The notes under the pieces are model-generated. The model made no database searches. It saw only the letters and a list, made by a program, of their open reading frames with translations, and had not been told where the DNA came from. Made by a program: the position numbers and the translations under genes. A DNA stretch of 62,799 nt, the filler included, from Hausera hauseri (taxonomy: Eukaryota): the NCBI GenBank assembly GCA_046269625.1. It is 11 parts of 11 records of this genome, joined end to end, with 100 filler letters (N's around TTAATTAATTAA, not from the genome) between each part and the next. Parts side by side here need not be neighbours in the genome. Positions count along the whole stretch, not along the records: positions 8,082 to 12,604 come from JBJURY010542008.1; 10 more parts are not named here. One strand, given 5' to 3'. Position 1 is the stretch's first letter. The number at the start of each line of letters is the position of its first letter. Shown piece after piece: positions 1 through 42,684 of the stretch.

Positions 1-1230
1 GCGTTTGACACCATTCACAACATCCATCACCCTGGATCAAAAGCCACAGCTCGCTTATTGAGCAGTAGAGTTTGTTGCCCTTGCATGCTCAGCGACATAA
101 AGCGGTGGACAAAAGAATGTTCACTTTGCCAACAGTACAAAGTCAACAAGACTCTACAGCCCCCAATCCTACACTATCCTACTGATTCATGGTTCGAAAC
201 CATCCATATGGACATAGTAGGACCATTTACCGAATGTAACGGATATCAGTACATCCTAACCATTCTCGACAGGAAAACAAGGTGGCCCGAAGCCATTTTA
301 ATCCGTCAAATAACAACGCAAAGCGTTGTGGCTGTATTGCTGAATACATGGATTTCTCGGTTTCGAGTATCTAAAAACATTATAACAGAAAAAGGTACCC
401 AATTCGAATCAGCCATGTTCATCCAGTTGACAAAATCGCTTGGTTCCAATCACATACATACATCACCCTAACATTCACAGGCGAACGGCTTGATTGGACG
501 ATTTCATCGTACACTCAAATCATCCCTACGAATTCTTTGTCATGACAACAAGAATTGGCTGGATGCCTTACCCATAGTACTATTAGGATGGAGAAACACT
601 CCAAACACTAGCACTGATGCCTCTCCGGCACAACTATTATTTGGTTCCCACCTTACATTCCCACAAAATCTGGTGCGAAATGAGGAAGTAACTTCAATTC
701 CTGCTCTTAACCAAGCCCGGAAGCATTTCCTTCCAATAGACACGAACATTGCATTCCACAATAATCACAAAAAAACAATCATGCCCAAGAATCTACGAGA
801 TGCATCCTTTGTCTGGTTCAAAAGCCAACAAAGACACGGTTTTGAACGGTACTATACGGGCCCTCACAAGCTCATAGAAATCACTGTGCACAACGCCAAA
901 ATACTGCGAGATAATGAGAAATATATAGTTTACTTGTCGAATGTAAAACCCGCATTCGGCTATCACGATTCCAATATCAAAGATCCTATCAAACAAAACG
1001 TACCCAGCATGTCAGAAGTAGACAAGCTTCTTCAAAACTACGACAGAATTGATTCATTCAATATGGACACTTTAGTAGCCTATAACCCAACCCCAGTCCA
1101 ACCTGAAACAAATATTGCTCCAACGCCAATACTTCCGGAAACGAAACGTACGACCATAAGTAGCCAAACCCCTGCCGCACCGGTGTCGAGTCGCACCAGG
1201 AGTGCATCAAAGGTACCCCAACTTCACTGA
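1..1230 (+). pseudogene. Ty3/Gypsy retrotransposon integrase (3' end of pol), decayed
   Basis: Frame 1 reads HNIHHPG...CSLC (HHCC zinc finger), FETIHMDIVGP, ILTILDRKTRWPEAI, TEKGTQFES (degenerate SDxGxQF) and HTSP*HSQANGLIGRFHRTLK. In-frame stop at 469-471; catalytic residues altered. Confidence 0.92.
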
Positions 1231-3347: not shown

Positions 3348-4956
3348 AATAATTATGATAATTTAGTTTCATTCCTAAAATACTGAACGCAGACATTAAT
3401 GTTGAGTTAGGAATTATCGTTAAACTGTACCTGTTATGTAATCACATTACAACTCAAACCAAAATATTCAAAAAACCAATGTCTACAAAAATTCAGCAAG
3501 CGGCTCGTTGAAAAGAAATTGGTTCCTAATTGGTTTTTAACATGTGTATGGTGTAATCAGCAAAAACAAAACAGTACCTCATACAGATTAAGTTTTGGAT
3601 ATTCGACACAGAACTGACACCTGAATCAAACAAAATCTGGTATCAAACTTCGAAATTTAATCGATGAAGATAAAAGTTAAAAACCAACTCTTAATTTGAA
3701 TGTTCAGGACAGATAACCACAGATATTGCATTCGTAAATTGTGACTCAATTATTTATCAAATGTTTTGTGAAAACCTCGGCTTTTTGTATTTTTGGATTT
3801 GTGGCTAATCAACGCAAAATAAAAAAATATGAATGTACGCCAATCTGAAATATAAATCTATATACCAATATGCACATTAAACATTTGATCAATTCACTCT
3901 ATCGTATTAATTTAATTTACAACATTGACATGCGTTGTTATTTACATATTTTTCATTTACTTTCTTACCCAAAATACTATTTTTTAAGTATTTGAAAATG
4001 ATACGGTAATAACAATTGAACCGAGATTTTTTCTGAAAGAATTTTTTCAACTTTGGTCAGTATACTTTCTGAAAGACAAATAAACAAATAAATAAGTCAG
4101 TTGTATATTGTCAAATCGAACGTCCGAGTTTCGACAAAAAACGAATCATGTCGAATATAAAATATGAAATCTGGAATCGTCAATAGTATATCTGCAACAG
4201 GAACATGAGAAAATGTTGAAATTATTGCACAATTAAGTTCAAGATTTACAGATCAAAAATTCCGATGTGAATTTTCAGAATGCTTCAGAATGTCATGGAT
4301 GAGTTGAACGTGTCCGATTACGAAATGTTTAGAAATCTTGGACCAACAAAACTGTATAGATTTATCTACAATATCTAAAGAATATAAAAACAAATAGTGC
4401 AAATAATTACCACAAAAAATTCAGAGTCGTTACTTAGTGAACAAAAAATCAAATAGTGCATAAAATTACTGAATATTTAAACAAATTTTGAGGTTTTATA
4501 AATATGTAATTTTCACAAGTCTTATTCCGATCATAAGTAAAACAGGTAACGTCAAAAAAATTATAAATTTACTATTAATTAATAATCAGCAAATAAATTG
4601 GTCTCAAGCAAGTTTTATTCGTACTTGAAAATTTATCCAGTCGTATGGATGAACTCACAGTAAGTAGAACAAAAACATCAGTTTTAATAGGGGGTATTTT
4701 TTAAAAATGACCTGTAAGTCGAATCTCAAAATTTCTCCACTGCAATGATATTTCCAACGAAACCATAGATTTTTTTCCGCCATCAAATTGACGGAACTGC
4801 ATTTACTCAGCTAAAAAGAAGTCGATCTCGTTGAAATGGGCATTGGCACCATTGGTGCTCGGAAGAAATTGTTGTATTGGCAAATGGTTACAATTTGCAT
4901 TCAGTCCCAAAATCAGTTACGTAAACTTTAAATTAAAATCAGTATGTTAATTTTTT

Positions 4957-4990
4957 CTGGCAGGGGAGTATTGTAAGGTTCTACCTTACA
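4957..4990 (+). other. Candidate polypurine tract and start of an LTR
   Basis: CTGGCAGGGGAGTAT followed by TGTAAGG, resembling Gypsy PPT/TG junctions. TGTAAGG-ttcta-CCTTACA is a short inverted repeat. The other LTR end was not found. Confidence 0.35.
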
Positions 4991-5896
4991 AAAAAATATT
5001 AAATTACGAAAACACTCAAAATTAAAACCTCAAAAATTAATATCACGGAATCGATCAAATAAAATTAAAAACCACGAATTCAAAATATTTTTCCCTTGAA
5101 GTTTTAAACACCAAAAAATAGTAACAAAACCATGGATTTGCCCAACACCAAACCAAAAAAATATGAAAAAATTAAAAAAGGCAAATAGGGAATTGCAAGT
5201 GCTGGGGCTATCAGCACCTGGATTCAACAAAAATAGTACAAAAACAAAGCTGTGGATTTGAACTCATTTGTTTAAATCCACAGTTTAAAGCCTGCAGAAA
5301 ATTATTCAAAAAGTAAAAGCAACACGACTCCAAAACTGCTAGAAACCCAAAAAAGGAATCCATCAACCAGATCAACGAAACCCGGCGAGCCAATCGTCCG
5401 GAATGATACAAAGGCTATCCCAGCCGATGCAACAACCCAACCAAACGCCACCCTTGGTGAAACGAAGACATTACCGACTCCGGAGTATTGCATTCCCAAG
5501 ATACCCCGATCAATACACGCCGAAGCGGGCAATAACACCGACCGCCGCGTCGCCTTACTGGAACAAAGTCGATCGGAAGAGCGGCAACGCGCAGCCCGAC
5601 AGAATACCGTCCCACGCGGCAGACGACGTCGCGACACCAACAGGCAAGCCCCGTGCCGATGCTATTCGAATTTTCTGAAAGTAAGGGAGCTGCTACAATG
5701 GAGCCGTTTCGTACGGCACTTAACCAGGCTAGGGCAATACGACCCCTGCGCTTTACCGACGACCACGCTTCATCGGTTCTACGAGATCGGAGAAAATTGA
5801 CGCCTTTTCGACTCGTCGGTTTTCCTGCCGGTCTTCCTAAGACTGATGGCGGCCTCCGACCGCCTCTACGAATCCGTGGCTCCATCTAAGAGCTAG

Positions 5897-7981
5897 TTGA
5901 TTCCGGACCAGAGGAACTCTGGCTCACGGCGGGTCAGGGCGTACAGCTCCGGCACGGACGACCAACCAATTCCCCCTCGTCGATTTTTCAGGACCGCACC
6001 GTCTCTATTCTCCACGGAAGAGTGTCACTCGTCGGCAGACGACGATTGTAATGTTAATAAACATTATGATTCTTATGCTGTTGTTTTCTACCAATTTTTT
6101 ACATTCGTTTTTTCTTACTGTTTTTTGGTTACGATGTTGCTAAATAGGGTCAGGGACTGTAATAAAGCAGTAAGTACTAAAATGATGGCAGAGGTTACCG
6201 CATTCACGCCCTTCAAAACAAACTCAGCCGTTGAAATCAATCCGGCTCAAACACTGCACACAGCAGTTCATAACAGTCGGGCTAAAATTCAGCGTAATGC
6301 TATTGAAACCAATCTGGCTACACTCACTCACTTCACCAAACGTGATCAGACAAAACCCGATGACAATATTTTCAGCGCGGCTATCATTCAGGCAATCACG
6401 AGTGGATTTGAACAAAAGTCGAAGCCTGAACGTGCAAACCAGGTTTTACGCACCAACACAGTCAAATCGGCACACGATTCCAATGACACAACAAAACCGC
6501 AAGTGATGCCATTTTTCATACGCGGATTATGCACCACGAAAGCGTATCGTTTCTTGACACACATGTCTGTTAAGTCAATGCTACAACAGCTCGCCATTTC
6601 ATATCCGGACCACATTTTTTCACACAATACGAAAATTTTGCGTCCATGGGATAGTCCAATTTCGGATCATTTCCCTACAAACAACGCGACACTGCTCGCT
6701 ACTCCCAGACTAAAAGGAGGCGTTGACGACCACACGCCAGACAAAAAAGATAAAACTGCATCATCAGCACCGGCCAAACCTCCCAAACTAGCATGTCCAA
6801 CCTTCTTCATAGGTTCGGACGGAACTCCATTGACGTGGTTTCATGTGTTTGAAACATGGGCTACTCAATGCAGCATCACAGGCCAACTAAACAAGGCTTT
6901 AACACTCATTCAGTACGTGCAGCCAACAACGCTCGCAGCCATAACGGATCTGGACACGCTATTGTCAGAAGAAAACCGTTTGACAAAATCAAAGCAGCCA
7001 TATGCAAAGCATATCTGCCGTCCCAACAGGACCAGTTCAACTTGGTCTTTACCAAGCGACAGACAGGGAATATGAAACCTTCTGCCTTGCTTCAAAAGTA
7101 ACGCTCAGATTTGAGCAATGCTGAGTTAAACCTCCACACCAACCAGCACATACTACGGCGATACTTCCTGAGTAGCCTGCCCAACCAAATCCAAGCGGCA
7201 CTTGTGCTATTACCGTCCGATACCACTTTGGACGATATGGCACCAAAAGCCGACAAAATACATGAGTGAACCAAAGGCACCGTAGAATCCGCTCCAACGA
7301 AAAACATCTACTCCACCACGACGACCCAGAAAAATCAGCTGGACACCATTATCGTTGTATTTCAGGCACTTGTAACGCACAAGAATCTGCCAGTTAGAAA
7401 CAAACCGTCATCTCGGCGCCAATCCCCCAAGAGAAAGAAAGGCAAATTTTCCAAAATTTGCCATTTCCACACACGATTTGGCGAATTCGCCTACAAATGT
7501 TACCATGGTTGTCAATTCGACAAGCCATCTGAAAACATGAAAATGCAAGACACTTGAATTTATCACAACCATTTCGGTCCAGATGCAAAAATCTGTTGAC
7601 CCGGCTACAAATTTCACAAGCCATCAAAAAATAAATGGGCCCAGACGACCAACGGCACGTCGACTGGAAACCCAATCACCACAACTGCCATATACAAATA
7701 CCGAACGCATTGTCGATGCTATTTTCACCCTCGAGGCGAAGCCACTACACTCTGACATCTGGAAACAACTCGATTTTCTAATCGACACTGGTGCAGCTTT
7801 ATCGTTGATACCTAGCGCATACGCTAGACCTACGCTGGTCTCGCATGCATCGCTCAAAGATGCCAATAGCACGCGCATAGCAACCACATGTACACTGTAC
7901 CTAAAATTTCACCTACAAGGCCGACCATACGCTTGGTCATTCATATTGGCCGATGTCATGCAACCAATCCTTGGTTCTGAC
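5897..7981 (+). mobile_element. Ty3/Gypsy gag (DUF7041-like) plus aspartic protease, frameshifted and truncated at the contig end
   Basis: PKLACPTFF...TWFHVFE...SITGQLNK; KPFDKIKAAI...TGNMKPSALL; FLSSLPNQIQAAL...MAPKADKI; ICHFHTRFGEFAYKC (zinc knuckle); protease FLIDTGAALSLIP...ILADVMQPILGSD. Confidence 0.9.
6506..6721 (+). CDS. Ubiquitin-like domain (72 aa) ending RLKGG, in frame at the N-terminus of Gag
   Basis: MPFFIRGL...SVKSMLQQLA...DHIFSHNTKIL..DSPISDHF..NNATLLATPRLKGG aligns by eye with ubiquitin MQIFVKTL...TIENVKAKIQ...QRLIFAGKQL..DGRTLSDY..ESTLHLVLRLRGG. Confidence 0.7.
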
Positions 7982-8081
7982 NNNNNNNNNNNNNNNNNNN
8001 NNNNNNNNNNNNNNNNNNNNNNNNNTTAATTAATTAANNNNNNNNNNNNNNNNNNNNNNNNNNNNNNNNNNNNNNNNNNNN
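7982..8081. other. Artificial contig spacer; identical spacers at 12605-12704, 16671-16770, 29428-29527, 34822-34921, 41405-41504, 45945-46044, 50307-50406, 54391-54490, 58505-58604
   Basis: 44 N + TTAATTAATTAA (stops in all six frames) + 44 N, repeated ten times. Confidence 0.99.
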
Positions 8082-11000
8082 GGAGTTGTATTAATCGCAA
8101 ACTGCGTTCCTTCTAGGAATTCATCCCAATCCTTTTGGTCTTTTGCCACTACTGTTGACAGTATGCAAAGGACTGTCGTGTTCATTCGTTCGACCATCCC
8201 ATTACATTGTGGGTGGTATGCGGTAGTAGTTTAACGTTCAATTTCGAATATCTTGGTAATTTTTTTGAATAATTCGCTTGTGAAGTTCCTTCCTCTATCT
8301 GTTAAGATTTGCTCTGGTGGTCCGTATCTGCAGATAATCTTCCCTACCACTGCGTCGGCTAATGTTTCCGCTTTTTGATCCAACAGTGCCACCAGTTCGA
8401 CAAAATGCGCCAATCGATCCACGCATGTTGGAATGTATCTGTTGTTTTTATGCGTTTTGGGTAAAGGTCCTACTATATTCATAGACATAGCCTGCATTGG
8501 CCTATCCGGTACGTTTATGTGTTTTAATTCTGCTACGTAGCCTTGCGTTTTCTTTTGTTTTGCCGTGCAGACTTCGCATGCTCCTACCCAATTCTTTACA
8601 TCAATATAGATACTCAGCCAATAGTATTTATTTAATATTCTTTCCTGTTTTCTTCCAAGGCATATGTCCGGCTAAGTATGAATCGTGTTCTGCCATGAGT
8701 ACTTTGATACGCAGTCATTTTGGAATAACTATCAGTCTTTTTCCTTTTCGCTCGTAATATAAGATATTATCTTGATTTGATGCATAATATTTATGTTCGT
8801 GTTTCTGTAGATGCTTTTTCAGTTGCCGTCTTTTCGGTATTTTGTCGTTTTGTACGAACTTGATAATCTGCTGAATAACCATGTCTTTAGCTTGCTCCGC
8901 TGTAATTCTAATTGCCTTATCTAATATTAAAGTTCTTTGCCGTTCGATCAACTGTTCGAGTTGTGGTTTCTTTAGTGTGGCGATGGAACTCGTTTTTGTC
9001 TTTAATCTTGATAATGCGTCGGCATCCACGTGTTTGTTACGGGGTTTGTATTGAAATTCAATGTTATATCGTGAAATTTCCTCCATCCAACGGTTTAGTC
9101 TACAGGTTGGGTTGTTAGCTCGTCATTTTAATGTCGTAACTGCTTTGTGATCAGTCACTATGATAATCTTTTGTCCGTAGACGTAGACATTAAAGTGTCA
9201 AAATGCTTCTTTAACTGCCAATGTTTTCAATTCGGTGACCGAATAAGTTTTTTCCGTTTTCTTCAATGAACGTCCACCATAAGCTTTTGGATGTTCTAAT
9301 TCTTCGTCTTCGCGTTTTTGAGCTAATTCTTATCCTATGCCTTCTTTGCTTGCATCTGTTTTAATGATGAATGGTAGGTTAAAATCCGGGTATCTTAAAA
9401 CTGGTTCTCTTGTCAGAATTTTCTTCATCTCATCGAATGCTTTTTGCTCCATTTCTGTCCATTTCCACTTAGTTCCTTTTTTGAGTAGACGATATAGTGG
9501 AGCGTTAATTTTGGAGTTGTCTGGTACATAAGTGGCATAATACCCGCATAGGCCTAACCAATGTCTTAATTTTTTTTGATTCTGTGGTTCCATACAATCA
9601 GATATTTTATTTAATAGCGATTTATCCGGCTTCCATCCTCCTTCTCCTACTATGTGTCCGAGGTTCAATACTGCGTTTTGTGCCAATTTGCATTTCTTTG
9701 GATTTAGTTTTAATCCTGCTTGTTCCAATTGCATGAGTGTATCGTCAATATCCTCTGTTTTTGATGCTATCATCACGTTGTCTAAATATGCGAAAGCATG
9801 ATCAAGTCCCATGAGCATTTTATTCATCATTCTAGTAAAAATGGCTGGTCCTGTCGTGATGCCGAAAGGCATAACATTAAATTCTTATACGCCATCGTGT
9901 GTTTTGAATGCTGCTTATAACGATCTTCTTCTTCAATTTCCACTTGCCAGTATCCTGATTGTAAATCGAGAGTGGTAAACCATTTCGCTCTTGAAAGTTT
10001 ATCTAATGCCTCTTTTACTGACGGTAGTGGAAACGAGTCTTTCATTATCAGCGTATTCAATGCCCTGTAATCTATACAAAATCGGTTTTTTGTGGTTCCT
10101 TTCTTTTTAACCATTAGAATGGGTGAGTACTATTACCGATAAATTGGTCGAATTATGTAAGCTTTTAACATTCGCTTTACTTCTTTAGTTATCTCCGGTC
10201 TTAATGACTGAGGAGGTGGATACCACTTGGGCATTTTATGTTCCTCTAAGTCAATTTCGTCATTTGAGCCAGGTTTCTTCCTCAATGGAATTGTTAATCT
10301 CAGAGCCTTTGCTATGCCTATATCTTCTTTATTTTGCGCTATTATAGACCGGAATTTACACAGTAATTCATAGAATTTGCAATACGCCTCAAGGAAGAAT
10401 TTAGTTTCAACATGACATGGAAATTCAGCACACTTATATGGTTTCTCTTCTATCGTTATCGCCGATACTCTGCAAGTGTGACCTAAAGTAGTATTAGCGT
10501 GCAATCTCACTGAATTTGGTGCATTGTTTACTAATCTGATAGGTATTTGTCCCATTACTACTTTACATAGAATATTACTAAGCATGAGTTTTGGATCGAT
10601 ATTCTCTTGAGGTTCGAAATAATCTGGCAAATCTTCATCCTGTCGAATCTGTACGAAAATTATCATTTCCGTTCTAGGCAAAATGCCTTCATCTACTGGA
10701 ATCCATACCTCGTCCGATTTCCTTTCCCTTATTACTTTTGTCCCTTATTTTGGTTCGAGTTCAATTAACTTTCCGTTTTGCACATCGATTGCCATACCCG
10801 GTATCTGTTTCAATATATCGCAACCTAATACTACATCGTCTGTTAACGGGTCCATTATCGTAAATTCGTGTTGAAGTGCTTGACCCATCATATAAACAGT
10901 AGAAGTCTATTTATATTTTGGCTTCGATACTTGTCCAAATGCTCCTACGCTACCTGGATCCGATAATGCGGGTGGACATAGCTGGTCTCGTAATGTGGTT

Positions 11001-11110
11001 GGTATTGCTTCATATTCTATAAATGATTTTTCTGATCCTGTGTCAACTAACGCATACATTTCCCAATCTTCTATGTGTATTTTAGTGAAGGGCCTCTCTT
11101 CTGCTACCTT
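8082..11110 (-). mobile_element. Ty3/Gypsy pol (PR-RT-RNaseH-INT), decayed, copy A
   Basis: YALVDTGS; RFCIDYRALN, LDLQSGYWQV, MPFGI, FAYLDNV (YLDD altered); FIIKTDASKEGIG; ADALSR; MSMNIVGPLP, ILTDRGRNFTS, TAYHPQCNGMVER. Many stops and frameshifts. Confidence 0.95.
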
Positions 11111-11518
11111 TCAGTAGCAATTTGACACTATCTTTGACTGTTTTATAGTAGAGACTCTATGTCCATTTATCGTTATCTCTGGCGACGAAATAATATCTTG
11201 CCTTAATTGTCCTAATTCTCCATTCGGATACAAGTCGTTGTTTGTTATTTCAGTAACATGGCTGTCAATGAGCGGTTCCTGTAATAGTGAGCCTGAGATT
11301 GAACATAGTTTTGGGTTCTCCAAAATTGTTGATTTTGATTCTATGTGACGTGGTATTCTTTTTGAATATAACTTCCCGTGGTCGTTTTCTGTTGGTCCTT
11401 GACTTATAGCGCTCATTTTTCGTAGTACTACAGAATGTTTTGGTTTCTCGCAAGGATCCTCATAATTAATAGGTTTTTGATAGATTTCGGATCTATATGA
11501 TACTATCGATTTGCGGTC

Positions 11519-12604
11519 TCAGTCTTCATATATTGGTGCTGTTGGCGGCATAATGGGCAACGGTGCGTTAATCACTGAGTAAATATTGTGCATCCTGATT
11601 CTGGAACGCACTTCTCCTCCCTTAGGCTTGTCATCATCTAAATCATCCTTTCGTATTGCTGTTTTCTTATTTTTACGTCTATACAAAATCGGGGGCTTTC
11701 CTCGCCGTTTTCTATTATAATACGCGACGTGGCATTCTACGTCATTCTTCCATCGATTTTCTTCGTAGGCCTTTAGCATTTTCCCAAAAGGCGTGATAAT
11801 TGCAGTCAAAATTTTGCAGAAAAATCCTGTTAATGTGAATATTTCGTATCCTTTTATAATAGCCTGAATTACTGCTTTAAATAGTTGGACTAAGAAGTAG
11901 ATAGCTAAAAATCCAAATGCGACTTGTCCGAAAATCAAAAATCTTCCCCCCCATTTTATACAGTATTTCTGATGTTCCCCTTTGTTAGTGGTTAGCACCT
12001 ATTAACGATTCCCATTTCGCTTGAAAGGGGGTATTGTCCATGACCATTGACATGGCCCGATTCAGTTTATACGTTCGTCGTAGCGGAAATGCTAAGAATT
12101 GCCCAAAGGCTCCTATGTCCTTTGGCCTATAAATTCCTTTGTTGACTGTATCCTCGAATTTATCTACCGATAGTCCTTTGATTAGATTCCTTCCAGTTAG
12201 TTTGCTAAGGTCTGCGATGGTACCTCTATTGGTAAGCTTATCCAGTCCGTACTGCTACGTCGAAACATAATCTCGTTCAAGCTCGTTTTGCATTCTTTCA
12301 GTATTGTTGGTTCAGTTGAGTTTGCCAATAATACTCTAGTGAGTGGCATTGCTAGTCTGGGCATGTTCTCATAGATGACAGGTAATTCCTGCATACATAT
12401 TTTCTCTTCTACATTGTTCAGTACGTCTCTTTTTTCGCATTAGTAAGTTAGGAGAACTTCTCCAGTAACTCGTCCGAAAACACCTTCTTTCCTTGGTTTA
12501 ATTGGTCATGCCAATTCTGGGTTGGCATAAATTAAGGCCAGTTTGGTTGTCATGACTTCAGTATCTAATTTGCAGTCATTTGTTATTATTTTGTGGTATA
12601 GCTC
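11519..12604 (-). pseudogene. Chuvirus-like (class III) envelope glycoprotein, C-terminal half with TM and tail, copy A
   Basis: LYHKIITNDCKL..ANPELA..GRVTGEVLLTY.C; CMQELPV..MPLTRVL; FLIFGQVAFGFLAIYFLVQLFKAVIQAIIKGY. These match the chuviral G pattern (C.LE...AGEV...C; CYxELPV..L.PxTRIL; FG...AG..AI..I..LIK..I..GY). Confidence 0.8.
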
Positions 12605-13013: not shown

Positions 13014-16000
13014 TTATACTATAAAGAGCCTATCATTGATGATTACCTCTGCTAACGTCAGCTGAAACATTCGGAGTTTATCGAATTCATACGACCAAAA
13101 CCTAACTCGGTTCCTCTCGGGAAACCTCATGGCACAGAAAAACAGCACAATATTCGCAGTGAGGGAGTCGCTAAAAGACGATACAAAATACTGATCGACC
13201 ATTCGAATGTAGAGGTCATTGAACGACACCTCACCAATTCTATCGACGAGATTCAATTCCGACAAATCGGACAGATATTTTTCCACGAAATGTTTCGTGA
13301 TATATTGTGGTAGTCCACTCAACACCTCGGTAAGGTCCGTCGGAGCCAGTGCACAGAGTAGCCGATGAAGGCCGACAGTTTTGTTCGTTTTCTCGTCGAC
13401 AAATTGGCCGTTCTCGAGAAACATAATGAAACAGAGACAGTCAATGACCGACGAGAAATTCAATGTGTTGTTTGATTGCAGCTGGCTGTCTTGTTTTGCG
13501 TAATAGGACTTTATTATTGTGTCATACCATGACGTTGGCAAGAGATATTCATCGACAGATCGTCCGTGGGCTAACAAGTCAGACGAGCATTCGGTGGACC
13601 GCAAATTCCGATGACAATCGATATAGGCCATCATCAATCGGGGAATGGTATCAATCAGACGACATCTGACTATATCGGGAACAGAGTAAGACAATGCAGC
13701 AATAATACTAGGTTCGCAAATGACGGACGTGAACAACAGTTGGCCGACGGAATAGAGTGATGGTCCTAAAAGGGGGAGTATTTTAATGGCAGATTTGTAC
13801 ACGAATCCCATGGACTGGGGGAAATCCCCATTCATACAATGACACAATTCAATGACAGTCAGGATTACGTGACTCATCGTTTCTAATTCCAACTGAGTGG
13901 ATGCTGCGTAAGGGGACGACGATGGGACAACAAGATTTGGCGGACAATTCGCTACGCGATTCAAATACAATTTCAAAGTAGCTGCCGTGAAAATTCTATC
14001 GATTAAGTGGAAATTCAACAGACTGGCGGGCGGTAATTTGCAACGTAGCATGGCCAGAATTGCGTGAGTTACTGCAGACAGTAATTGAATGTGTGGGTGA
14101 AGATAGATTTTATGGGGTTTCGTGTCGATGAATTTCGGATTGCGCGTCTGCACGGCCAACGGCGCACAGTTACTCAGAAGATTATCGACATCGACTTTAA
14201 TGAACTGCATACCCGAATGACGGTGGCAATAACCCAGAATGGTATTCTGTGCAGCTGACTCTAATAAATTGTCCACCATACCGGATTCAATCAGAGGCAC
14301 TAGCAGGTCGTTCCAGAATTTCGTTGCAGTTTCAAATACCGTTCTAGCGATTTGTTTGCATTCATGTTCGAAATAGACAGTTTGCAAATGAATGAGTGTG
14401 CTCAATAACGATTCGGGAATGTTTGTCGAAACCAAATTGCCAATGATGATTGATCGCAATGAATGAATAGTTTCCGTGAAATGCGCCATTAAATCGGCTG
14501 GTACTATTGTGTTGCTCGTGATGAAGGCAATGAAAAATGTTGCCATGGATTCTGCAAGTGGCGCAAAATCTGAGCGTTCAATACAACCGACGATCTCACC
14601 GAGCAACGCGGGCAAAATGACAGTTATCGGACCGGAATGTATATTCCGCTGAATCATGATGCTGATCAAACGAATGGCTTCTACACGCACAGCAGTATCA
14701 AACGATGACTCAGTAACGATCGGGTAAATTGCAGTAACAATCGACTGATCTCGAGTGAGTTTGTGTGCAAGTGACTGGCTTTGTTGACAGAGAATACGCA
14801 CTAATTTCAACATGGATCCAGTGCTGTCAGTTACTTTCAACACGTGTTTATTGACGAGTAATTTCATTAGATTCTCATTTTGATTGCACAATTCATTGGC
14901 TGTCTCCAGACAATGTGCTGCCACCAACTGGAGTATTTCCAGGAGCTTGGTTTCGATGGCCATCGTTAAAACGACGTTGGAAACCGTCAGTAACCAAGAA
15001 ATACGAGTGAGAAAGTGGGTTTTAAAAACGAGGCAAAAAATGATATCTTCTGCCATAAGGACGTCATCTTGAATTTGAGTCCGTTCGGATGCATCAACAT
15101 TCTGTCGATAACGGTTTTCAATTGTTGCTGACTTGGACATATAACGAGAAATGGAAAAGTTCAGTTGACAATTCGGCCAAGAGAATACAGACCGTTCAGT
15201 ACATTCCTCATTAGGAACAATGATGGCATGCATCAGTGTAATGGCATCGACGAGATGTTGTTGACGAATTCCAGCATCGTCAAAAATCCATCGTGCTAGA
15301 AATACGATGCCGCAATCAATAAGAGCCTGTGTTACTATAGGCATGTTCAACCAATGAACGTGGTCTAAAGAATTGGATTTTCGAAGAATATTTATCAGTG
15401 TTTCAACAACCAAATGTCTTTGTTGTGCAAATGCACTACGTGCCAACCAAAATAACTCACTGATTGTGTAACCATCTCGACCCGGTTCTTCGCCATGATG
15501 TCGTAATGAATCAGAAAATATGTCAGATTCGGAATTATGCCGTAATGCTTCTTTCATTTCCTTTTCTTCCTCGGTTAATTCTGTACCATCATTGGGATCC
15601 ATTATACTTCCGTTAATATGGAATCTGATGCGAACCGACTTGGCCTTTTCTGATTTATCGTCAATGTATCGCATCCATTCCAATTTATCTCGTTCGACAT
15701 AATTCATATTGAGATACTTATCATAATCGGATATGGGCAGAAATGATAGATCATCGTCGTTTTTATCAGCTGATGTGTCCATTTTTTCAACAGTTTCTGG
15801 TGGTTCTTGACAAATTCTTTTTAATTCTGACAGAAATTGAACATCCTTTGACGTTTTCTCTTTTCGTTCTTTGTTTCGCTTGGCAATATCGTTTGCCAAT
15901 TTTTCTTCTTGTTCCTTGCTTCGTTTGGCAATCAAATTTTTCATTCCCATTAATGTTTCGGGTTTAATAGAATTAAATAATTCTCCTCTAAGTTTGACAA

Positions 16001-16253
16001 TTTCGTTTGCAGATAATCCGTGAAAAGCCTCATTTCTATTCTGAATTTGCGTCATTTCCTCAACAGGGTCATAATTAGAATCAGTCAGTTGATTTGGCAC
16101 AGGAGTTTCGTTGACAATGTGAGAGACCTCATTGTCAAAATGTTCTGTTTTCTTTCGATTGAACGGTGAAACGACTTTCCCACTAGAATTTCGATTACAA
16201 GCATACAGTGATAAGTGCTCCGGCTTCGAAGAAGGCTTAAGCTCTGATTTCAT
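13014..16253 (-). CDS. RPAP1: RNA polymerase II-associated protein 1 (main exon; further 3' exons likely)
   Basis: 1079-aa ORF with an RPAP1_N-like segment (GLSANEIVKLRGEL), the RPAP1_C signature RF..G...LRHHGEEPGRDGYTISELFWLARSAFAQQR, a helical ARM-like middle and YFVSSFSDSLTAN near the C-terminus. Confidence 0.9.
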   Translation of the reverse strand: MKSELKPSSKPEHLSLYACNRNSSGKVVSPFNRKKTEHFDNEVSHIVNETPVPNQLTDSNYDPVEEMTQIQNRNEAFHGLSANEIVKLRGELFNSIKPETLMGMKNLIAKRSKEQEEKLANDIAKRNKERKEKTSKDVQFLSELKRICQEPPETVEKMDTSADKNDDDLSFLPISDYDKYLNMNYVERDKLEWMRYIDDKSEKAKSVRIRFHINGSIMDPNDGTELTEEEKEMKEALRHNSESDIFSDSLRHHGEEPGRDGYTISELFWLARSAFAQQRHLVVETLINILRKSNSLDHVHWLNMPIVTQALIDCGIVFLARWIFDDAGIRQQHLVDAITLMHAIIVPNEECTERSVFSWPNCQLNFSISRYMSKSATIENRYRQNVDASERTQIQDDVLMAEDIIFCLVFKTHFLTRISWLLTVSNVVLTMAIETKLLEILQLVAAHCLETANELCNQNENLMKLLVNKHVLKVTDSTGSMLKLVRILCQQSQSLAHKLTRDQSIVTAIYPIVTESSFDTAVRVEAIRLISIMIQRNIHSGPITVILPALLGEIVGCIERSDFAPLAESMATFFIAFITSNTIVPADLMAHFTETIHSLRSIIIGNLVSTNIPESLLSTLIHLQTVYFEHECKQIARTVFETATKFWNDLLVPLIESGMVDNLLESAAQNTILGYCHRHSGMQFIKVDVDNLLSNCAPLAVQTRNPKFIDTKPHKIYLHPHIQLLSAVTHAILAMLRCKLPPASLLNFHLIDRIFTAATLKLYLNRVANCPPNLVVPSSSPYAASTQLELETMSHVILTVIELCHCMNGDFPQSMGFVYKSAIKILPLLGPSLYSVGQLLFTSVICEPSIIAALSYSVPDIVRCRLIDTIPRLMMAYIDCHRNLRSTECSSDLLAHGRSVDEYLLPTSWYDTIIKSYYAKQDSQLQSNNTLNFSSVIDCLCFIMFLENGQFVDEKTNKTVGLHRLLCALAPTDLTEVLSGLPQYITKHFVEKYLSDLSELNLVDRIGEVSFNDLYIRMVDQYFVSSFSDSLTANIVLFFCAMRFPERNRVRFWSYEFDKLRMFQLTLAEVIINDRLFIV

Positions 16254-16770
16254 GATAGGTTCATTTGAAAACGGTCTTTCCTAAACATCCTTTCAGAATT
16301 AATCTTTAAATAAAAATTTACAATAATTTTGGCATCTTTATTTGACTTAATATTGACTCCAATCATTAATTATTGACTCCGAAAGTAATGTGGTTGGAAA
16401 ATTTCAAAAAAAAAAGAAAATATTTCTGTAAAAAACCGTGTGAATGATTCGTTAGTGTCGAGTTTCAACTTGTAAAAATCTTACAAAAATTTTCAATTCA
16501 AATTTTATTATCAAAATTCCAATAACAAAACAAAATATATGTAGTATAGTTTCAAAATAATTGTCATTTTTAGGAATTCTAAATCCGATATATTTATTTG
16601 TTATTTCAGTATATCATTGGGCAAATATGATTTTCTTGGTAAAACCGATACGTGAATTAAATGGTTAATCNNNNNNNNNNNNNNNNNNNNNNNNNNNNNN
16701 NNNNNNNNNNNNNNTTAATTAATTAANNNNNNNNNNNNNNNNNNNNNNNNNNNNNNNNNNNNNNNNNNNN

Positions 16771-34921: not shown

Positions 34922-37820
34922 ATTACACTGAGAGTGATACGCGGTAGTTGTTAATCGTTTCTATTTCAAATATCCTGGTAATCTTCTCGAAGAGTTCACT
35001 GGTAAAATTTCTTCCGCGATCCGTTAATATTTGGTCTGGTGGTCCATGTCGACAAATAATTTTTCTTACTACGGCTTCTGCCAAGGTTTCTGCCTTTTGG
35101 TCAATTAACGCTGTCAACTCGACAAAATGAGTTAGTCGGTCAATACAAGTTAAGATGTACTTATTGTTCTTGTGAGTCGTAGGAAGAGGTCCTACTACAT
35201 CCATTGACATGGCTTGCATAGGGATATCCGACACATTGATTGGTTTTAATTCGGCCATGTAGTTTTCCATCCTCTTTTGTTTAGTTCACATACTTCACAA
35301 GCTTTTACCCAATTCTTTACATCAATATAGATAATGGGCCAAAAGTATTTATTCAATATTCTTTCTAATGTCTTCTCCCAGGATATGTGTCCTGCTAAAT
35401 ATGAATTATGTTCCGACATTAGCACTTCGGTTTGTAAACCTTTTGGAATAACTATCAGTTTCCTTCCTTTCCGTTTGTAATATAAAATATCCTTATTGCT
35501 CTTGTCATTTAAGACGCAGTATTTATGTCCATGTCTGTGTAAGTATTTCTTTAATTGTCGTCCCTTTGGTATGATATCCTTTTTAGAAAATTCTATAATT
35601 TGCTGAATAACTTTATCCTTTCTTTGTTCTGTGGAGATTTTAATTGCTTTATCCATCGTTAAGACGCGTTGGCGGTCTATTATTTCCTAAAGTTGACTTT
35701 TCTTCATTACCATGATTGCGCTCGTTTTGGTCTTTAATCTTGATAGTGCATCGGTATCTACATGTTTATTTCCTGGCTTATACTGGAATTCGATATTGTA
35801 TCTAGAGGTTTCTTCGGTCCATCTGTTAAGTCTGATGTCGGGTTATTTGCTCGGCCTTTTAAAGTCGTGACGGCTTTGTGATCAGTGACAATTATAATTT
35901 TCTGCCCGCATACGTAAACGTTGAAGTGTCTAAGTGCTTCTTTTACGGCTAGAATTTCTAATGCGGTAACAGAATAATTTTTCTCGGCACTCTTCAAGGA
36001 ACGTTCTCCATAAGCAATTGGGTATTCTAATTTTTCACCTTTTTTTCTCTGGGCTAATTCATATCCAATGCCTTCTTTACTGGCGTCTGTCATGATTATA
36101 AAGGGTAAGTTAAAGTCTGGGTACCGTAAAACAGATTAGCTTGTTAATATCTTCTTCATCTCGTCGAAGGCTTTTTGTTCGACGTCGGTCCATTTCTATT
36201 TAATTCCTTTTTTAAGTAGACGATATAAAAGTGCATTAATTTTCGAATTATCTGGCACACAGGTGGCGTAATATCCGCACAGTCCTAGCCAGTGCCTTAA
36301 TTCTTTCTGGTTTTATGGTTCCATGCAATCTGATATTTTGTTTAATAACGATTTATCTGGTTTCCATCCTCCTTCTCTAACTATATGGCCAAGGTAGGAT
36401 ACTGCATTCTGAGACAATTTACATTTTTTCGGATTTAATTTCAATCCGGCTTGTTCCAAACGCATCACCGTGTGTTCAATATAATTTAAGTGTTCCTCTT
36501 CTATCCTTGACACTATCATTACGTCATTCAAATATGCAAAAGCATGATCTAATTTCACTAGCATTCTATTCATCATCCTTGTAAAGATGGCTGGTCCGGT
36601 AGTAATACCGAATGGCATGACATTAAATTCATAGACGCCATCATGTGTCTTGAACCGCGTTTTATATCGATCTTTGTCCTCGATTTCTACTTGCCAATAT
36701 CCGGATTGTAAATCCAGGGTGGTAAACCATTTTGCTCCTGATAATCTGTCTAAAGCCTGTTTTACTGATGGTAATAGGAAAGAATCTTTCATCATAAGAT
36801 TATTCAATGCCCTGTAATCAATGCAGAATCGATGTTTCGTAGTACATTTCTTTCTAACAATAAGGATGGGTGAATACCAAGATCTATAACTGGGCTTAAT
36901 TATATCGGCCTTAAGCATCCGTTCGACTTCTTTTGTTACCTCAGGTCTCAGAGAGTGAGGTGGAGGATACCATTTCGTCATCTTCTGATCCTCAAGATCT
37001 ATTTCTTCGTTTGAACCAGGCTTTTTCTTAAGCGGAATAGTCAATTTTAATGCTTTTGCTCTACCAATATCTTCGTCGTCTTTAGCAATGACTGATTAAT
37101 AGCAGCACAGGAATTCATAAAATCGACATGAGGTGGAAATTCGGCATACTTGTAAGGCTTTTCTTCAATAGTTATCGACGACACTATATACGTATCTCCT
37201 AGAGTAGTGTAAGCATGAAGCTTTACGGGGTTCTGTACGTTGTTTGCTATACTGATTGGTATACGACCGGAGTGTACTCTTGTCAGTACGTTACATATTT
37301 GGATTTAATGTTTCCTTTCGTTCAAAATATACCGACTGATCGTCATCTTGCTGAATTTGTGCGTAAATTATTATGTCCGTTCTCGGTGGAATATTTTCGT
37401 CTACTGTTATCCACACTTCTCCAAATTTCCTATCCTTAGCGTTCTTTACTCCTTTATTTGGTCTGATTTTTATTAACTTTCCTGTTTGTAAGTCAATTGC
37501 TATATTTTGTAGTCTTTTTAGTAGATCACATCCGAAAACTATGTCGTCAGTTAATTGTTCCATAACTGCAAATTCGTGACGGAAAAACTGTCCAACTATT
37601 TGAACTTCTGGGTTCCATTTAAACATCGGTTTCGACATTTGGCCAAAAGCTCCTGTACTTCCTGGGTCTTTTATAGATGGTGGGTATAATTGTCCCCTCA
37701 GCGTTTGAGGAATTGAATCATTTTTGATGTAAGACATCTCAGAACCTGTATCGATTAATGCATAAACTTCCCAATCTACAATAATGATTTTGGCGAAAGG
37801 TCTTCCTTCTATTACTGTTC
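34922..37820 (-). mobile_element. Ty3/Gypsy pol (PR-RT-RNaseH-INT), decayed, copy B, same family as 8082-11110
   Basis: YALIDTGS; RFCIDYRALN, LDLQSGYWQV, FAYLNDV; TDASKEGIG, TDHK; H...GH...CEVC; MSMDVVGPLP, ILTDRGRNFTS. Collinear with copy A. Confidence 0.95.
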
Positions 37821-38237
37821 CAAAACAGTTTGATGCAACTTTTTGGCGATTAGTCGCCGATATTTAATGTCCGTTGATTCGGATTTCTGGGCAGGATACT
37901 ATATTTTCCGACAGTTGTTTTAATTCTCCTTTTGGATATAATTCATTGTTTTCTATGTTCAATTCTTCCGTTTCATGTGTACTAATTAATGGTTCTCGAT
38001 CGTTAGTATGTGGTTCTATATTCTGGTAGGTTTTTAACATTGGAATTTCTCAGACAGTTGATCTAGTTTCTATATTCCGAGGTTCTCTCGGGGAATACAA
38101 TATTCTGGGGTCGTCGAGGGGCTGTCGATACACATGTTCCTTAGGACTCCGTAACGTTTCGTTCCTGCATAAGGGTCTTCTAAACTAATTGTCATTTTCT
38201 AGATTTCTGTCTTATATGAACTCATTGATTGTTTGTC

Positions 38238-40311
38238 ACAGTCCTCATAGTCTGGAGCGGTAGGGAGTAGCATATGCAATGGTGATTTAATGACCGAATA
38301 CGTCTTATGTCTGTTTGTTCCTAAAAGTATTTCTCCTCTCTTAGGCTCGTCATCATCTGAATTATTTCTTCGCGTATTAGGTTTTCTAAATTTCTGCTGT
38401 GTAAGAACATAGGCCTTCCTTTCCGTTTACGATTATAATAACCGACATGACGTTCTACATCTTATTTCCATCTATTTTCTTCGTATGTCTTTAAGACCTT
38501 TCCAAAGGGCTTTATGATTGCAGTCAGTATTTTGCATGAAAATCCGCTCAATGTAAATATTTTATACCCATTTATTAATGCTTGGATGACTTCCTTAATC
38601 ATTTGTATCAAAAAATATATTGCTAAGAATCCGCATGCGGCTTGGCCAAAGATCAAAAATCTTCCACAAATTTTGTATAGTATTTCTGTGGTTACTCGCT
38701 GATAATGGTTTATGCCAAGTAATGATTCCCATTTAGCTTGGTATCGCGTGTCATCCACTACAGAGGCCATGGCTCGACTTAATTCATGTGTTTGTTGTCG
38801 CTGAAAAGCGAGAAATTGTCGGAAAGCTTCAATTTCTTTAGGTCTGTACATATCCTTCGATGAGGTGTCTTGAAACTTGTCGTCTATAATTTCTTTTGCG
38901 AGATTTGTTCCCGTTAATTTATTTGGAGAAGCAGTAATACCTCCATTTGGCAGACTAATCCAATCTGTTTCGTTACGTCTAAACATCGGTTCTCCTAAGC
39001 TTGCTTTGCGATCTTTAAGGATTGTTGGTTCAGTTGCATTGTCTAATAGTACTCTAGTGAGTGGCATGGATAACCTTGGAATATTCTGGTAAATAACGGG
39101 AAGTTCACGCATGCAACGTTTTTCTTCAACGGTGAGTGGGACATCTCTTTTCTCACATTCGTAAGTCAATAGTACTTCACCGGTAACTCGACCAAAAATT
39201 CATTCTCTCATAGGAATTATAAGGGATGCCAACTCAGGGTTAGCGTAAATAAGAGGCAGTTTTATCCTCATGATTTCCATATCCAATTTACAATCTTCTG
39301 TTATCATTTTATGATATAACTTGGTTATTCCGACTTGCCCTTTGTAATAGAAATAATCATTACTGTTTTACAGATAATCCTAAATTCGGATATCCTGCGT
39401 TTCTAGTTTATAAGTCTTTGCATTTATTTCTGTTTCTGCGACAAAAATGCCTCATAGTTAATAACGAACATCATTACTTCACAACGAGAAATCATTTCTT
39501 TCTTAATACATTTTAGTCCATGCTGATCAGAGATTAATATAATGGGCGTAGGATGTTCTGATACGACTTCGCGTGTCCTTGAGTTGGTATCGGATTTATC
39601 CAGGTATCGCTTTCCGGTAGTTTCATTAAACTTTAATTCCTTAATTTTGATAAAATTACAGTTTCTTCCAGAGGGAGGTTACCATATTATAACGGAACTT
39701 CTAAAAGCATAGGTTCCGTCTTGTAAATGACACTTTTGATTCTCGGTATATAGTTTAGTGACACTATGGAACATTACTTTCTGTGCTCGCATCTCTGATT
39801 CATAGAAATCCACGACCACTACATTTGCTTGTAATCCTTTTCCGGTGTCGTATTCCGCTCCGTTACAATGTCCTTTATGTATATCTAACCTTCCGACCAC
39901 TACATTGTATGCCCTAATTATCTTTCCTGGTTGCATTTCTAATTCAATACTGTCCCATTGTAATCTTCCTGTCTTCTTAGCATGTTTGCAGTGCTGGCGT
40001 TCTAAGTTCATCGGAATTGGAGGAATTGTTGGTTTGATTACTGAAGAATGTCCGTGTATTAATCCACAGTGAAAAGTGCTTCGAGACCGTCTCAGCATAC
40101 ATTCTATTCCATCTAATGATATCAATTCTTGTTGTTGGTACAGAAAATAATTTTTCTCTCTCGTTTCTAACTTGTGCGGCCTGGCATCTTAGCACACTTC
40201 CAAATCCATTAGGGAATATCTCTGCCCTAGTTTAAACTTATCGCAGTCGTAGACGGCAACAGCGCCTATGTGCCTTATTAGCATCATAAAGGTGAGTAAT
40301 CTGATTAGCCA
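38238..40311 (-). pseudogene. Chuvirus-like (class III) envelope glycoprotein, complete but decayed, copy B
   Basis: Signal-like WLIRLLTFMMLIRHIGA then VAVYDC; C....RSTFHCGLIHGHSS; CKHAKKTG; GHCNGAEY...NVVV; GRVTGEVLLTYEC; CMRELPV; MYRPKEIEAFRQFLAF; TM FLIFGQAACGFLAIYFLIQMIK. Cys and motif order is that of chuviral G. Confidence 0.85.
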
Positions 40312-41037
40312 ATTTGATTCGTTTTTCCGGTTATTATTATCAGTTGTTAGCAAATTATGTAGCATATCTTCCGGCCCATTGGTATTCCTGGGTCGTTTGT
40401 CTTCTTCTTTGTCAAATAGTCTCGATCAATTTACTTCGCAGGGTAGCTTTCTCGCCGCTCTTCGTGATAAGCTTGTAGCTCTATTAATTTCATTCTCTCG
40501 ATTAGGGTTTACCTTGATAGCTAAGTATAGTAATAATTTTCTTAATTCTTCAATGGTGTTTTCTACCATGATCTTTTCGATTACCGATTCGTCGGTTAAG
40601 TTACTTTTCGATAGTTTAAAACGTCAACTTTTCATCATTCTAGCTGCACTGAACATTGCTTTTTCTTTGTCATCTAATGTGTTATTTCGAAAGCTTGAAT
40701 AATTTACAATACGTATTAAATTCTTATTAATTCGTTTAATTCGTCACTGTAAGTGCTGAAAGTAGGAATCGACAATTGTCTGAACTCTCTAATCAATTCT
40801 CTATTATGATCAATTGCCGCTCATGTCTTCTTAAGACTACCGACTGGGCGTTTCTGTCTTGGGACATTGGCTATCATTTCACTCAGCGGCACTAAATTCT
40901 TGTCGTATTGTTCCTTGTCCTCATCCGTTTGTAAATACTCGAAATACATTGCAGCACCTCGGACTCACATGATTTGTCCTACGCATTGTTCCGTCTTGGC
41001 CTTACGCATGGCTTCTTCTTTTGTCTGTTCATTGGCT

Positions 41038-41260
41038 ATTATTACTACTATTTAATTTGTTTCGTCGGGGATAATCCCTACATCTACTAATTGTTCTAAA
41101 TCGTTGAGTATTCTACCTCTAAAGTAAAATTTATAATTTAGCTCATTTGTTCCGCTATTATTTAATAACCATTCTCTTACGTCCCTTACATAGGAATATG
41201 TAGTTAACTCACATTTTTTTCGCACATCCACTCGGATGATACCATTACTTTCATCGTTAT
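41038..41260 (-). pseudogene. Ubiquitin-like domain without diGly, upstream of the glycoprotein
   Basis: Manual translation with one frameshift at the T-run ~41214-41220: ITMKVMV...ELTTYSYVRDVREWLLNNSG...YKFYFRGRILNDLEQLVDVGIIPD..*IVVII. Compare ubiquitin [20 protein letters not shown]. Confidence 0.55.
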
Positions 41261-41941
41261 TTCAGGTTTAGTCCTTAAGATTTTAGAGTATTTCCTTATC
41301 AAAAGTTTCGGCACCGTGCTATAAATTGTATTCTCACTAGATAATTTAGTTAAGGTCGGAATAAGTTGTCTTAACTTACTTTCAGTAATATTTACGTTAA
41401 TTAGNNNNNNNNNNNNNNNNNNNNNNNNNNNNNNNNNNNNNNNNNNNNTTAATTAATTAANNNNNNNNNNNNNNNNNNNNNNNNNNNNNNNNNNNNNNNN
41501 NNNNACAAAGAATAAGAAAAAAACCAAGAGTTTTTGGTAGAGAGAAAAAAAAAAAAGGGTGAATCTTTGTAAAGATATTAAAGGGTTTGTTTCTCTAGAA
41601 TTTTTGTAGATACCTATAACGGTGTCTGACAGAGAAATAATATACTTATAGAGGTTCTTGAAAAGGCTGAGAAAGAAACCTTTATAGAGTTTTTGGAGGA
41701 GCTACTGGTTCTAGGAGAAATCCTAGAGAAGACCTTATCGGCGCATAAGGCAGGTAGATTCTTACAGTTTTGGTTTTTCTAAAACGGGTAACCAGACCTG
41801 TAAGGATAACCTAAAGCCCTTTATAGGAAATAAAGGCCCGTCTTAAAGTAATAGGAGGCAGAGCGATCACAAAGCTGATGTTGTGAATTCTGTGAAGACG
41901 TTTGCAGTCTAAAGCGGATATCCCACCCAATTTCAGAAGAA

Positions 41942-42629: not shown

Positions 42630-42684
42630 CAGCAACACCAACAACTTATATCAAAGAGAAGACTTTTGCCAGCTCCTTCAGAAA

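Follow-up and report, generated by a model that had tools for sequence, protein, structure and literature searches.

Does the locus hold a viral fusogen, G, joined in frame to the Pol of a gypsy element, and is such an arrangement new? Two copies of the element, A and B, lie on the minus strand of the window (the whole stretch of 62,799 nucleotides of Hausera hauseri DNA that was analysed), and they are 70% identical over 4347 aligned bases (Table 1). Copy A ends inside G on one side and inside the integrase (IN) on the other. Since its contig is truncated on either side, and copy B likewise makes up a whole contig, neither gag nor LTRs could appear.

Table 1. Positions of the two copies and their parts in the window
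Feature	Positions	Strand	Basis or remark
Copy A	8082..12604	(-)	whole contig between assembly spacers
A: G ectodomain, C-terminal half, frame-broken	11960..12604	(-)	PF24664 E 9.5e-12 on 12194-12604
A: G transmembrane segment (TM)	11852..11947	(-)	hydropathy; PF24664 positions 534-603, E 9e-9
A: basic tail and low-structure linker, G and PR in same frame	11111..11850	(-)	third-position excess
A: retropepsin (aspartic protease, PR)	10802..11101	(-)	PF00077 E 2.5e-7, stops read as X
A: beta-rich domain, PR-RT interval	10466..10705	(-)	profile from 7 relatives, E 4e-10
A: reverse transcriptase (RT)	9651..10111	(-)	PF00078 across two frames; break near 9910
A: RNase H (RH), Ty3 type	9066..9461	(-)	PF17919 E 9.4e-32, PF17917 E 3.1e-28
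A: integrase (H2C2 + core), cut by contig end	8082..8644	(-)	PF17921 E 4.1e-6, PF00665 E 5.6e-10
Copy B	34922..41404	(-)	whole contig; reaches from ahead of ubiquitin-like domain into integrase
B: region preceding ubiquitin-like domain in relatives	41267..41404	(-)	4-relative profile E 3.5e-5
B: ubiquitin/SUMO-like domain	41030..41261	(-)	Atlas neighbours PF00240 (0.90), PF11976 (0.89), leads only
B: region in frame with G, site of relatives' BCL2-like domain	40320..40770	(-)	
B: internal hydrophobic signal, just ahead of mature G start	40255..40311	(-)	hydropathy; PF24664 match from 40305
B: full-length class III G	38486..40305	(-)	PF24664 E 2.3e-14 and 8.7e-32
B: retropepsin	37507..37806	(-)	PF00077 E 3.9e-6
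B: reverse transcriptase	36379..36855	(-)	PF00078 E 1.6e-34

The first-pass annotation of this DNA had recognised a chuvirus-like fusogen and a gypsy Pol, and both identifications hold. G is a class III fusogen that matches PF24664 and has a gB/GP64-type fold: the model of copy B's G (pLDDT 87.6) matches a chu-like G at E 4e-17 and herpes gB at E 4e-6. The ectodomain of this copy is split over two frames, and its TM lies at about 38573-38671; in copy A a second, weaker hydrophobic stretch starts at 11842. Pol is assigned to Ty3/gypsy by its PR-RT-RH-IN order and its Ty3-type RT and RNase H. The best PDB match of copy B's RT is Ty3 RT (E 9.7e-41), followed by 8r0s, which we take to be a caulimovirus-type RT (2.9e-33), and by 7kse, presumably a foamy virus RT (2.6e-17). 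The beta-rich domain of copy A occupies the position of the dUTPase-like domain of Burro, a planarian gypsy element discussed below, and has a homologous region in relatives; it gave no PDB match at E < 0.5 and no dUTPase match by sequence. Rfam gave 0 matches. At 13014-16280 the window also contains a host gene, RPAP1, whose Atlas neighbours belong to mixed clusters of eukaryotes.

The fusion itself is best read in copy A, where the ORFs starting at 11998, 11416, 10681 and 10114 share one minus-strand frame, as had been proposed: all four positions are 1 mod 3, and translation agrees. From 11998 to 9950 this frame has 6 stops over 683 codons, whereas the other two have 71 and 47, and none of the 6 is common to copy B. 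The codons of copy B aligned with the stops at 11519-21 and 11111-13 are sense codons and, conversely, the stop of copy B aligned to 11482 is a sense codon in A, just as the annotation had stated. Substitutions between the two copies are in excess at third codon positions in the TM (P 2e-6), PR (P 7e-7) and RT (P 4.5e-14), as well as in the whole linker (11676-11114, P 9.5e-5). From the TM of G to RT, the element was one selected frame in its functional ancestor. Copy A's frame is broken at about 12236-11952 in G, at about 9910 in RT and again ahead of the integrase.

Intact copies of this layout were found among relatives. G, PR, RT, RH and IN form a single ORF in P0003, P0005, P0023, P0044, P0152, P0155 and L001, the last being stop-free over 3426 codons, and P0050 adds one further G-protease ORF by Pfam. 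G runs into a protease motif within one ORF in 9 of the 16 best HMMER matches and in 14 of the 150 matches listed; three top matches (P0007, P0013 and P0015) end 30-75 residues past the TM, without a protease. Of 12 relatives scanned, 11 have one predicted TM on the way from G to the first protease; in P0002 nothing in this interval rises above the threshold. An earlier word-index search with the TM-to-PR stretch of copy A, in which 0 of 1503 candidates among proteins of 1090-3110 aa scored, was weak and is overturned by the HMMER relatives. Viral contigs yielded no relative, either through a piece of copy B (43 stretches) or through alignment A2 (508 stretches), and metagenome contigs yielded at least one locus out of 596 stretches.

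Env in frame with PR-RT thus describes copy A and the intact relatives, whereas copy B is broken: from TM to protease it passes through three frames, which change near 38395-38375 and near 38130. These two frame changes would suit G and Pol as separate products, joined through programmed frameshifting, read-through or splicing, the single frame of copy A being accidental. Also in line with this are the linker stretch 11401-11250, which alone has no codon-position signal (P 0.34), and the 1:1:1 output of a polyprotein, which is unusual among retroelements. However, A and B have no stop in common, their slippery-type heptamers fall at non-matching sites, and in seven relatives the ORF is unbroken from G to integrase. 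The contigs of run X1, which differ in length only near 9910 and 11950 and nowhere from TM to RT, point the same way, weakly, because the pieces are short and filtered. Separate products are very unlikely.

The annotation had also seen no Gag between G and PR, and indeed the CCHC knuckle is absent from all 12 frames of A and B. An ENV-GAG-POL order, with the TM-protease linker as a short unrecognised Gag, would have its parallel in two mite elements, of Medioppia and Oppia, described with a short Gag (PMC13524379), and would suit a linker that is under selection. Against it, the linker has neither a CCHC nor a match to a Gag profile from three intact relatives, whose best hit (E 0.056) lies elsewhere in A, and in relatives a Gag precedes G within one ORF (CCHC in P0003, P0008, P0009, P0012 and P0023; Retrotrans_gag in P0012), so that this order can be given hardly any weight. 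The proposed G-PR-RT-RH-INT polyprotein accordingly stands in part. That the ancestor was in frame is borne out by the codon signal between A and B and by the ORFs of intact relatives; that it began at G is contradicted by the upstream Gag of the relatives and by the ubiquitin-like domain and signal ahead of G in copy B.

The N-terminal part can be followed further in copy B. For the region preceding its ubiquitin-like domain, the best match of the same profile on decoy contigs has E 0.61. The ubiquitin-like domain has moderate support: the family profile gives E 0.021, the best among all searched frames, and there is no Pfam match. Ahead of G, relatives have a weakly supported BCL2-like domain, matched by Pfam in P0007 (E 0.00096) and suggested by a low-confidence model of the upstream part of L001 (mean pLDDT 48.5), for which 40 of 40 listed fold matches are BCL2-family, the best at E 0.03. 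A sequence search for BCL2 against PDB returned nothing, and no BCL2 was detected at the corresponding site of the decayed copy B, where an upstream slice of P0002 gave E 0.12. Ankyrin repeats occur in P0152.

The annotation knew of no description of such an architecture, but one had been published for Burro/GYPSM1, giant gypsy elements of planarian flatworms with env in frame with Pol (PMC6431247, with Grohme 2018 and Jurka 2007 as earlier sources). The layout at this locus is real, but its kind is already known, and the element is a divergent addition. As Burro is portrayed in that paper, it shares with copy A an Env in frame ahead of PR (with mononegaviral fusion-protein homology in Burro), an additional domain between PR and RT and the PR-RT-RH-IN order, and with copy B a ubiquitin/SUMO-like domain upstream of env. 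Decayed Burro copies with stops and frameshifts are reported from Dugesia japonica, and A and B are likewise decayed (PMC6431247). Burro exceeds 30 kb and has an N-terminal Gag (retrotrans_gag and CCHC) in the same ORF, a part that falls outside the cut contigs of A and B; its BCL2, BIR, MATH and ankyrin domains are not seen in the window. The likeness is judged from description rather than from direct alignment with Burro or Schmidtea sequences.

A GAG-ENV-POL order has also been reported from nematodes, bryozoans and flatworms, as has a chuvirus-like G beside gypsy pol, and the errantiviruses in question, with an HSV/gB-type env, resemble the present element in their Ty3/gypsy Pol and in a class III env before Pol; the main text of this source mentions neither in-frame fusion, nor a polyprotein, nor Burro (PMC13524379). 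Six Schmidtea rows of the same study share motifs with the closest relatives of the window element, whereas ten of its nematode C1 rows look, by eye, unlike the clade of this element. Three short motifs taken from those Schmidtea errantivirus rows turned up in 9, 14 and 8 proteins among 18 of the clade and in 1, 0 and 0 among 82 free G; copy B's own G has 0 of the 3. The Anakin elements, whose G likewise belongs to PF24664, are described as having a BEL/Pao Pol with G after the integrase; membership of that group is ruled out by the Ty3-type RT and RNase H and by the position of G upstream of PR. The NERV endogenous retroviruses of nematodes, ascribed to Sacco 2022, reportedly have a continuous gag-env-pro-pol ORF. 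Compared by description only, they too are Metaviruses with a captured RNA-virus glycoprotein before pol, with nematodes as hosts.

A quick G tree was built from 65 of the 137 eligible rows: all protease-bearing ones, 12 chosen others and one in three of the rest. It groups copy B with all its G-PR proteins in a clade of 21 rows (SH-aLRT 98). The 44 other rows are mostly free G of about 650 aa, and P0061, in which DUF5641 is followed by G, is placed among them. This bears on whether a chuvirus gene fragment landed beside gypsy pol by chance, as a non-retroviral EVE that was never part of an element; Jingchuviral G EVEs do often have gypsy fragments alongside, with capture described as unclear (PMC10084718). 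Such an accident is scarcely credible here and is largely refuted by codon selection and the G tree: the same junction was kept under codon selection in two copies 30% apart, and G clusters with fused, not free, G. In addition, related pieces fill 30 of 30 bins in run X1.

The RT tree, rooted at midpoint with no outgroup and hence uninformative, sets copy B apart from its 9 other rows, the best identity being 46%, so Pol gives no proof of descent from the Burro lineage. A Burro-unrelated gypsy Pol could have picked up a G belonging to that clade, through either recombination or a separate capture, perhaps outside the flatworms. Besides this RT position, the undetected BCL2 of copy B, the single protease, the wider spacing of TM and PR (291 residues in A against 120-380 in relatives) and the reported non-monophyly of GAG-ENV-POL elements (PMC13524379) would agree with such an origin. 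It is nonetheless improbable, as the upstream region, ubiquitin-like domain and G of copy B all match the same clade, and long branches such as those of copy B (1.82 and 2.0 in the two trees) are expected of decayed copies.

Most likely, A and B are the dead and decayed remains of a Burro-like GAG-ENV-POL Ty3/gypsy LTR element that made one long polyprotein when alive. Its order would have been Gag, ubiquitin-like domain, helical domain (BCL2-like in relatives), internal signal, class III G ectodomain, TM, tail, PR, dUTPase-like domain, RT, RNase H and integrase. In flavivirus and alphavirus polyproteins, internal signals are used and signal peptidase cleaves. Here, synthesis of the N-terminal part would be cytosolic; the internal signal would then direct G to the ER lumen, with cleavage by signal peptidase ahead of the mature G start. 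The single TM would halt transfer and thereby leave the basic tail (18 K/R among its first 60 residues after 11788 in copy A) and Pol in the cytosol. This topology of a cytosolic N-terminal part, luminal G, one TM and cytosolic tail and Pol is probable. Trimers of G might gather the proteases, and the dimeric retropepsin of the element itself would presumably release Gag, RT/RH and IN at the site of particle formation on the membrane, with Gag, G and Pol produced 1:1:1. A PTAP motif in the linker of copy A (11534-11545) may recruit ESCRT; late-domain motifs vary among relatives (one PSAP, with PPxY/YPxL scattered) and are not conserved, which makes PTAP a weak lead.

Independent data now confirm a diverse clade of gypsy elements in which a single gag-env-pol ORF includes a chuvirus-like fusogen, and add one divergent member to it. 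It is doubtful that the element represents a separate, still abundant lineage of enveloped single-ORF gypsy elements in a non-planarian host, with PTAP, in the tail of G, as its budding signal and Pol anchored in the membrane at either end. Threading and cleavage of the polyprotein and the formation of enveloped particles are no more testable from dead, truncated copies than from Burro in Schmidtea. A two-glycoprotein layout within a single polyprotein was not found in the searched portions of the literature. The more interesting lead is the second signal-ectodomain-TM protein that intact relatives have in frame after the integrase: it would tether Pol at both ends and, if true, would yield a two-glycoprotein virus from one polyprotein.

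The in-frame joining of a chuvirus-like class III fusogen (G) to Pol is a real feature of the gypsy element present here as two decayed copies, A and B, and the structural inference of the first-pass annotation is largely correct. The G of both copies matches PF24664 (Monjiviricetes fusion). A model of the N-terminal half of copy B G, with X at stops (mean pLDDT 87.6), has chu-like virus glycoproteins as its top match (E 4e-17) and, among solved structures, matches herpesvirus gB, thogotovirus Gp and baculovirus GP64, so that the class III assignment stands. G is followed by protease, reverse transcriptase (RT), Ty3-type RNase H and an H2C2-core integrase, which is the gypsy order, and the best solved-structure match of RT is Ty3. 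The linker between the G transmembrane segment (TM) with its basic tail and the protease has no Gag profile match and no zinc knuckle, in agreement with the earlier claim that no gag lies there. The window consists of short contigs strung together with N spacers; both element contigs end within coding sequence, hence gag and LTRs are out of view. Ahead of its G, copy B encodes a hydrophobic signal, a stretch in the frame of G and, with moderate confidence and no Pfam match, a ubiquitin-like domain. Both copies carry a PTAP motif in the tail of G, which is not conserved in relatives.

Features of the window
Feature	Position	Strand	Remarks
Copy A	8082-12604	-	whole contig, the same extent as first annotated
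PTAP motif, copy A	11534-11545	-	also at the matching place in copy B
Copy B	34922-41404	-	contig
Ubiquitin-like domain, copy B	41030-41261		Atlas neighbours in PF00240 and PF11976 clusters; family profile E 0.021
LTR-element piece	472-1230	+	integrase end
LTR-element piece	5897-8029	+	gag-like ORF with protease
RPAP1 gene	13014-16280		1088 codons, intron-free; only 2 close relatives
15-base tandem array	16771-29427		whole contig; strong strand skew, long open frames
Polinton-like pair, 86% alike	30904-33161; 58607-60872		type B DNA polymerase (PF03175) and endonuclease VII matches
SGNH/GDSL esterase-like ORF	42601-43971		E 0.0013
THAP ORF	46229-46870

The two copies are 70% identical across 4347 aligned bases. 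The four ORF starts placed in one frame by the first-pass annotation do share it: of the 683 codons from 11998 to 9950, 6 are stops in the G-Pol frame of copy A, whereas the other two frames have 71 and 47. At all six places copy B lacks a stop, which bears out the claim that the stops of one copy read as sense in the other. Where the copies differ, it is mostly at the third position of codons in this frame; this holds for the TM (P 2.4e-6), tail (P 0.023), whole linker (P 9.5e-5), protease (P 7.3e-7), domain after the protease (P 8.3e-6) and RT (P 4.5e-14). The linker thus once encoded protein in one register with G and Pol, although its stretch 11401-11250 taken alone lacks the signal (P 0.34). 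Copy A has frame breaks within G and within RT. The frame from G to protease, described earlier as broken only by point stops, holds for the register of copy A and the codon-selected linker, but copy B has two frame changes on the way from TM to protease, which had gone unmentioned and counts against a single-register reading of the linker. In run X1, 13,451 of 15,501,002 contigs lay on copy A at a cut-off of at least 85% and reached 30 of 30 bins; depth dropped over the linker, and length differences were listed at two places only, near 9910 and 11950. As these pieces are short and never reach from TM to protease, and depth does not give copy number, they hint weakly at an abundant family sharing copy A's register.

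Intact relatives were sought with the C-terminal half of copy B G in 1.84 billion proteins (HMMER; 235 matches, 150 listed). The same ORF continues from G into a protease motif in 9 of the best 16 matches and in 14 of the 150 listed; among the best 16, three stop 30-75 residues past the TM and four fall short of its end. Relatives with G, protease, RT, RNase H and integrase in a single ORF are proteins P0003, P0005, P0023, P0044, P0152 and P0155 and the locus L001, stop-free over 3426 codons. Several relatives have 2-7 protease motifs, and five proteins have Gag features upstream of G. A BCL2-like domain before G is weakly indicated in P0007 (Pfam E 0.00096) and in the low-confidence model of L001, whose 40 listed fold matches all belong to the BCL2 family (best E 0.03). 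A quick G tree (65 of 137 eligible rows) places copy B, on a long branch, in a 21-row clade (SH-aLRT 98) holding every protease-bearing G; in an RT tree without outgroups, it lies outside the other rows, also on a long branch. P0003 (HBK71150.1), a complete G-Pol polyprotein, carries the database label of a hypothetical protein from a Flavobacteriaceae MAG, probably through eukaryotic contamination.

The architecture, which the first-pass annotation did not know to be described, is already published. Burro/GYPSM1 of planarians has one ORF of about 4900-5100 aa, ordered Gag with CCHC knuckles, Ubi2/SUMO-like (PF11976), BCL2, Env, PR, dUTPase-like, RT, RH and IN, its Env matching mononegavirus fusion proteins (Arkhipova and Yushenova 2019, PMC6431247). 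A later work reports that gypsy elements of the GAG-ENV-POL order, their env being of gB type, occur in Nematoda, Bryozoa and Platyhelminthes, and counts 114 in arthropods that have a chuvirus-like G (Chary and Hayashi 2026, PMC13524379). Three motifs of the six Schmidtea G rows of that work recur in 9, 14 and 8 of 18 clade proteins, whereas 1, 0 and 0 of 82 free G proteins have them. The G of copy B matches none of the three. The window element shares with Burro the in-frame env and, with moderate confidence, the ubiquitin-like domain, and is probably a divergent new member of the Burro-like GAG-ENV-POL elements, most likely working in the same manner. Of the other Burro domains, BCL2 was not detected in decayed copy B, and the domain between protease and RT in copy A matches a profile of that region from seven relatives (E 4e-10) but no PDB entry below E 0.5, so a dUTPase identity is at most a candidate. 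Nematode NERVs reportedly have a single-ORF layout too, in work of Sacco from 2022.

An ancestral membrane-spanning G-Pol polyprotein had been proposed: its domain order, its single frame under selection and the unbroken ORFs of relatives stand, while we infer the side on which Pol lies and its cutting. A cytosolic Gag, ubiquitin-like and helical part would end in an internal signal, luminal G would be freed by signal peptidase, and one TM would bring the chain back to the cytosol. The basic tail fits this one-TM topology, and so does a hydropathy scan of 12 relatives, 11 of which have just one strong hydrophobic segment separating G from the first protease. If a second, weaker hydrophobic stretch at 11842 in copy A also spanned the bilayer, the topology would be reversed, but this stretch has a poor score and includes charged residues. 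G trimers would cluster the proteases, whose dimerisation is required, and Gag and Pol would then be cut free by them at the membrane; in relatives, this cleavage would also place the BCL2-like domain close to a membrane anchor.

Both window copies end within integrase. In P0003, P0005, P0044, P0152, P0155 and L001 (about 9000-10280), the ORF goes on beyond it with another hydrophobic signal and then a putative ectodomain, fibronectin-III-like by eye in some, followed by a C-terminal TM in all except P0044. This region, with no informative Pfam match and no mention in the Burro section of PMC6431247, is possibly a second, attachment-type membrane protein. A further strong hydrophobic segment lies between protease copies, ahead of RT, in L001 (about 4730-5400, with a likely signal and ectodomain before it) and P0152 (about 2088). 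Past its polyprotein, L001 has a separate ORF (10617-12107) with an RNase_T-type exonuclease domain (E 1.4e-5).

As for the rest of the window, the assembly may mix organisms, so the host genes tabulated need not come from the element's host. The SGNH/GDSL esterase-like ORF is reminiscent of LINE ORF1 proteins of fish.
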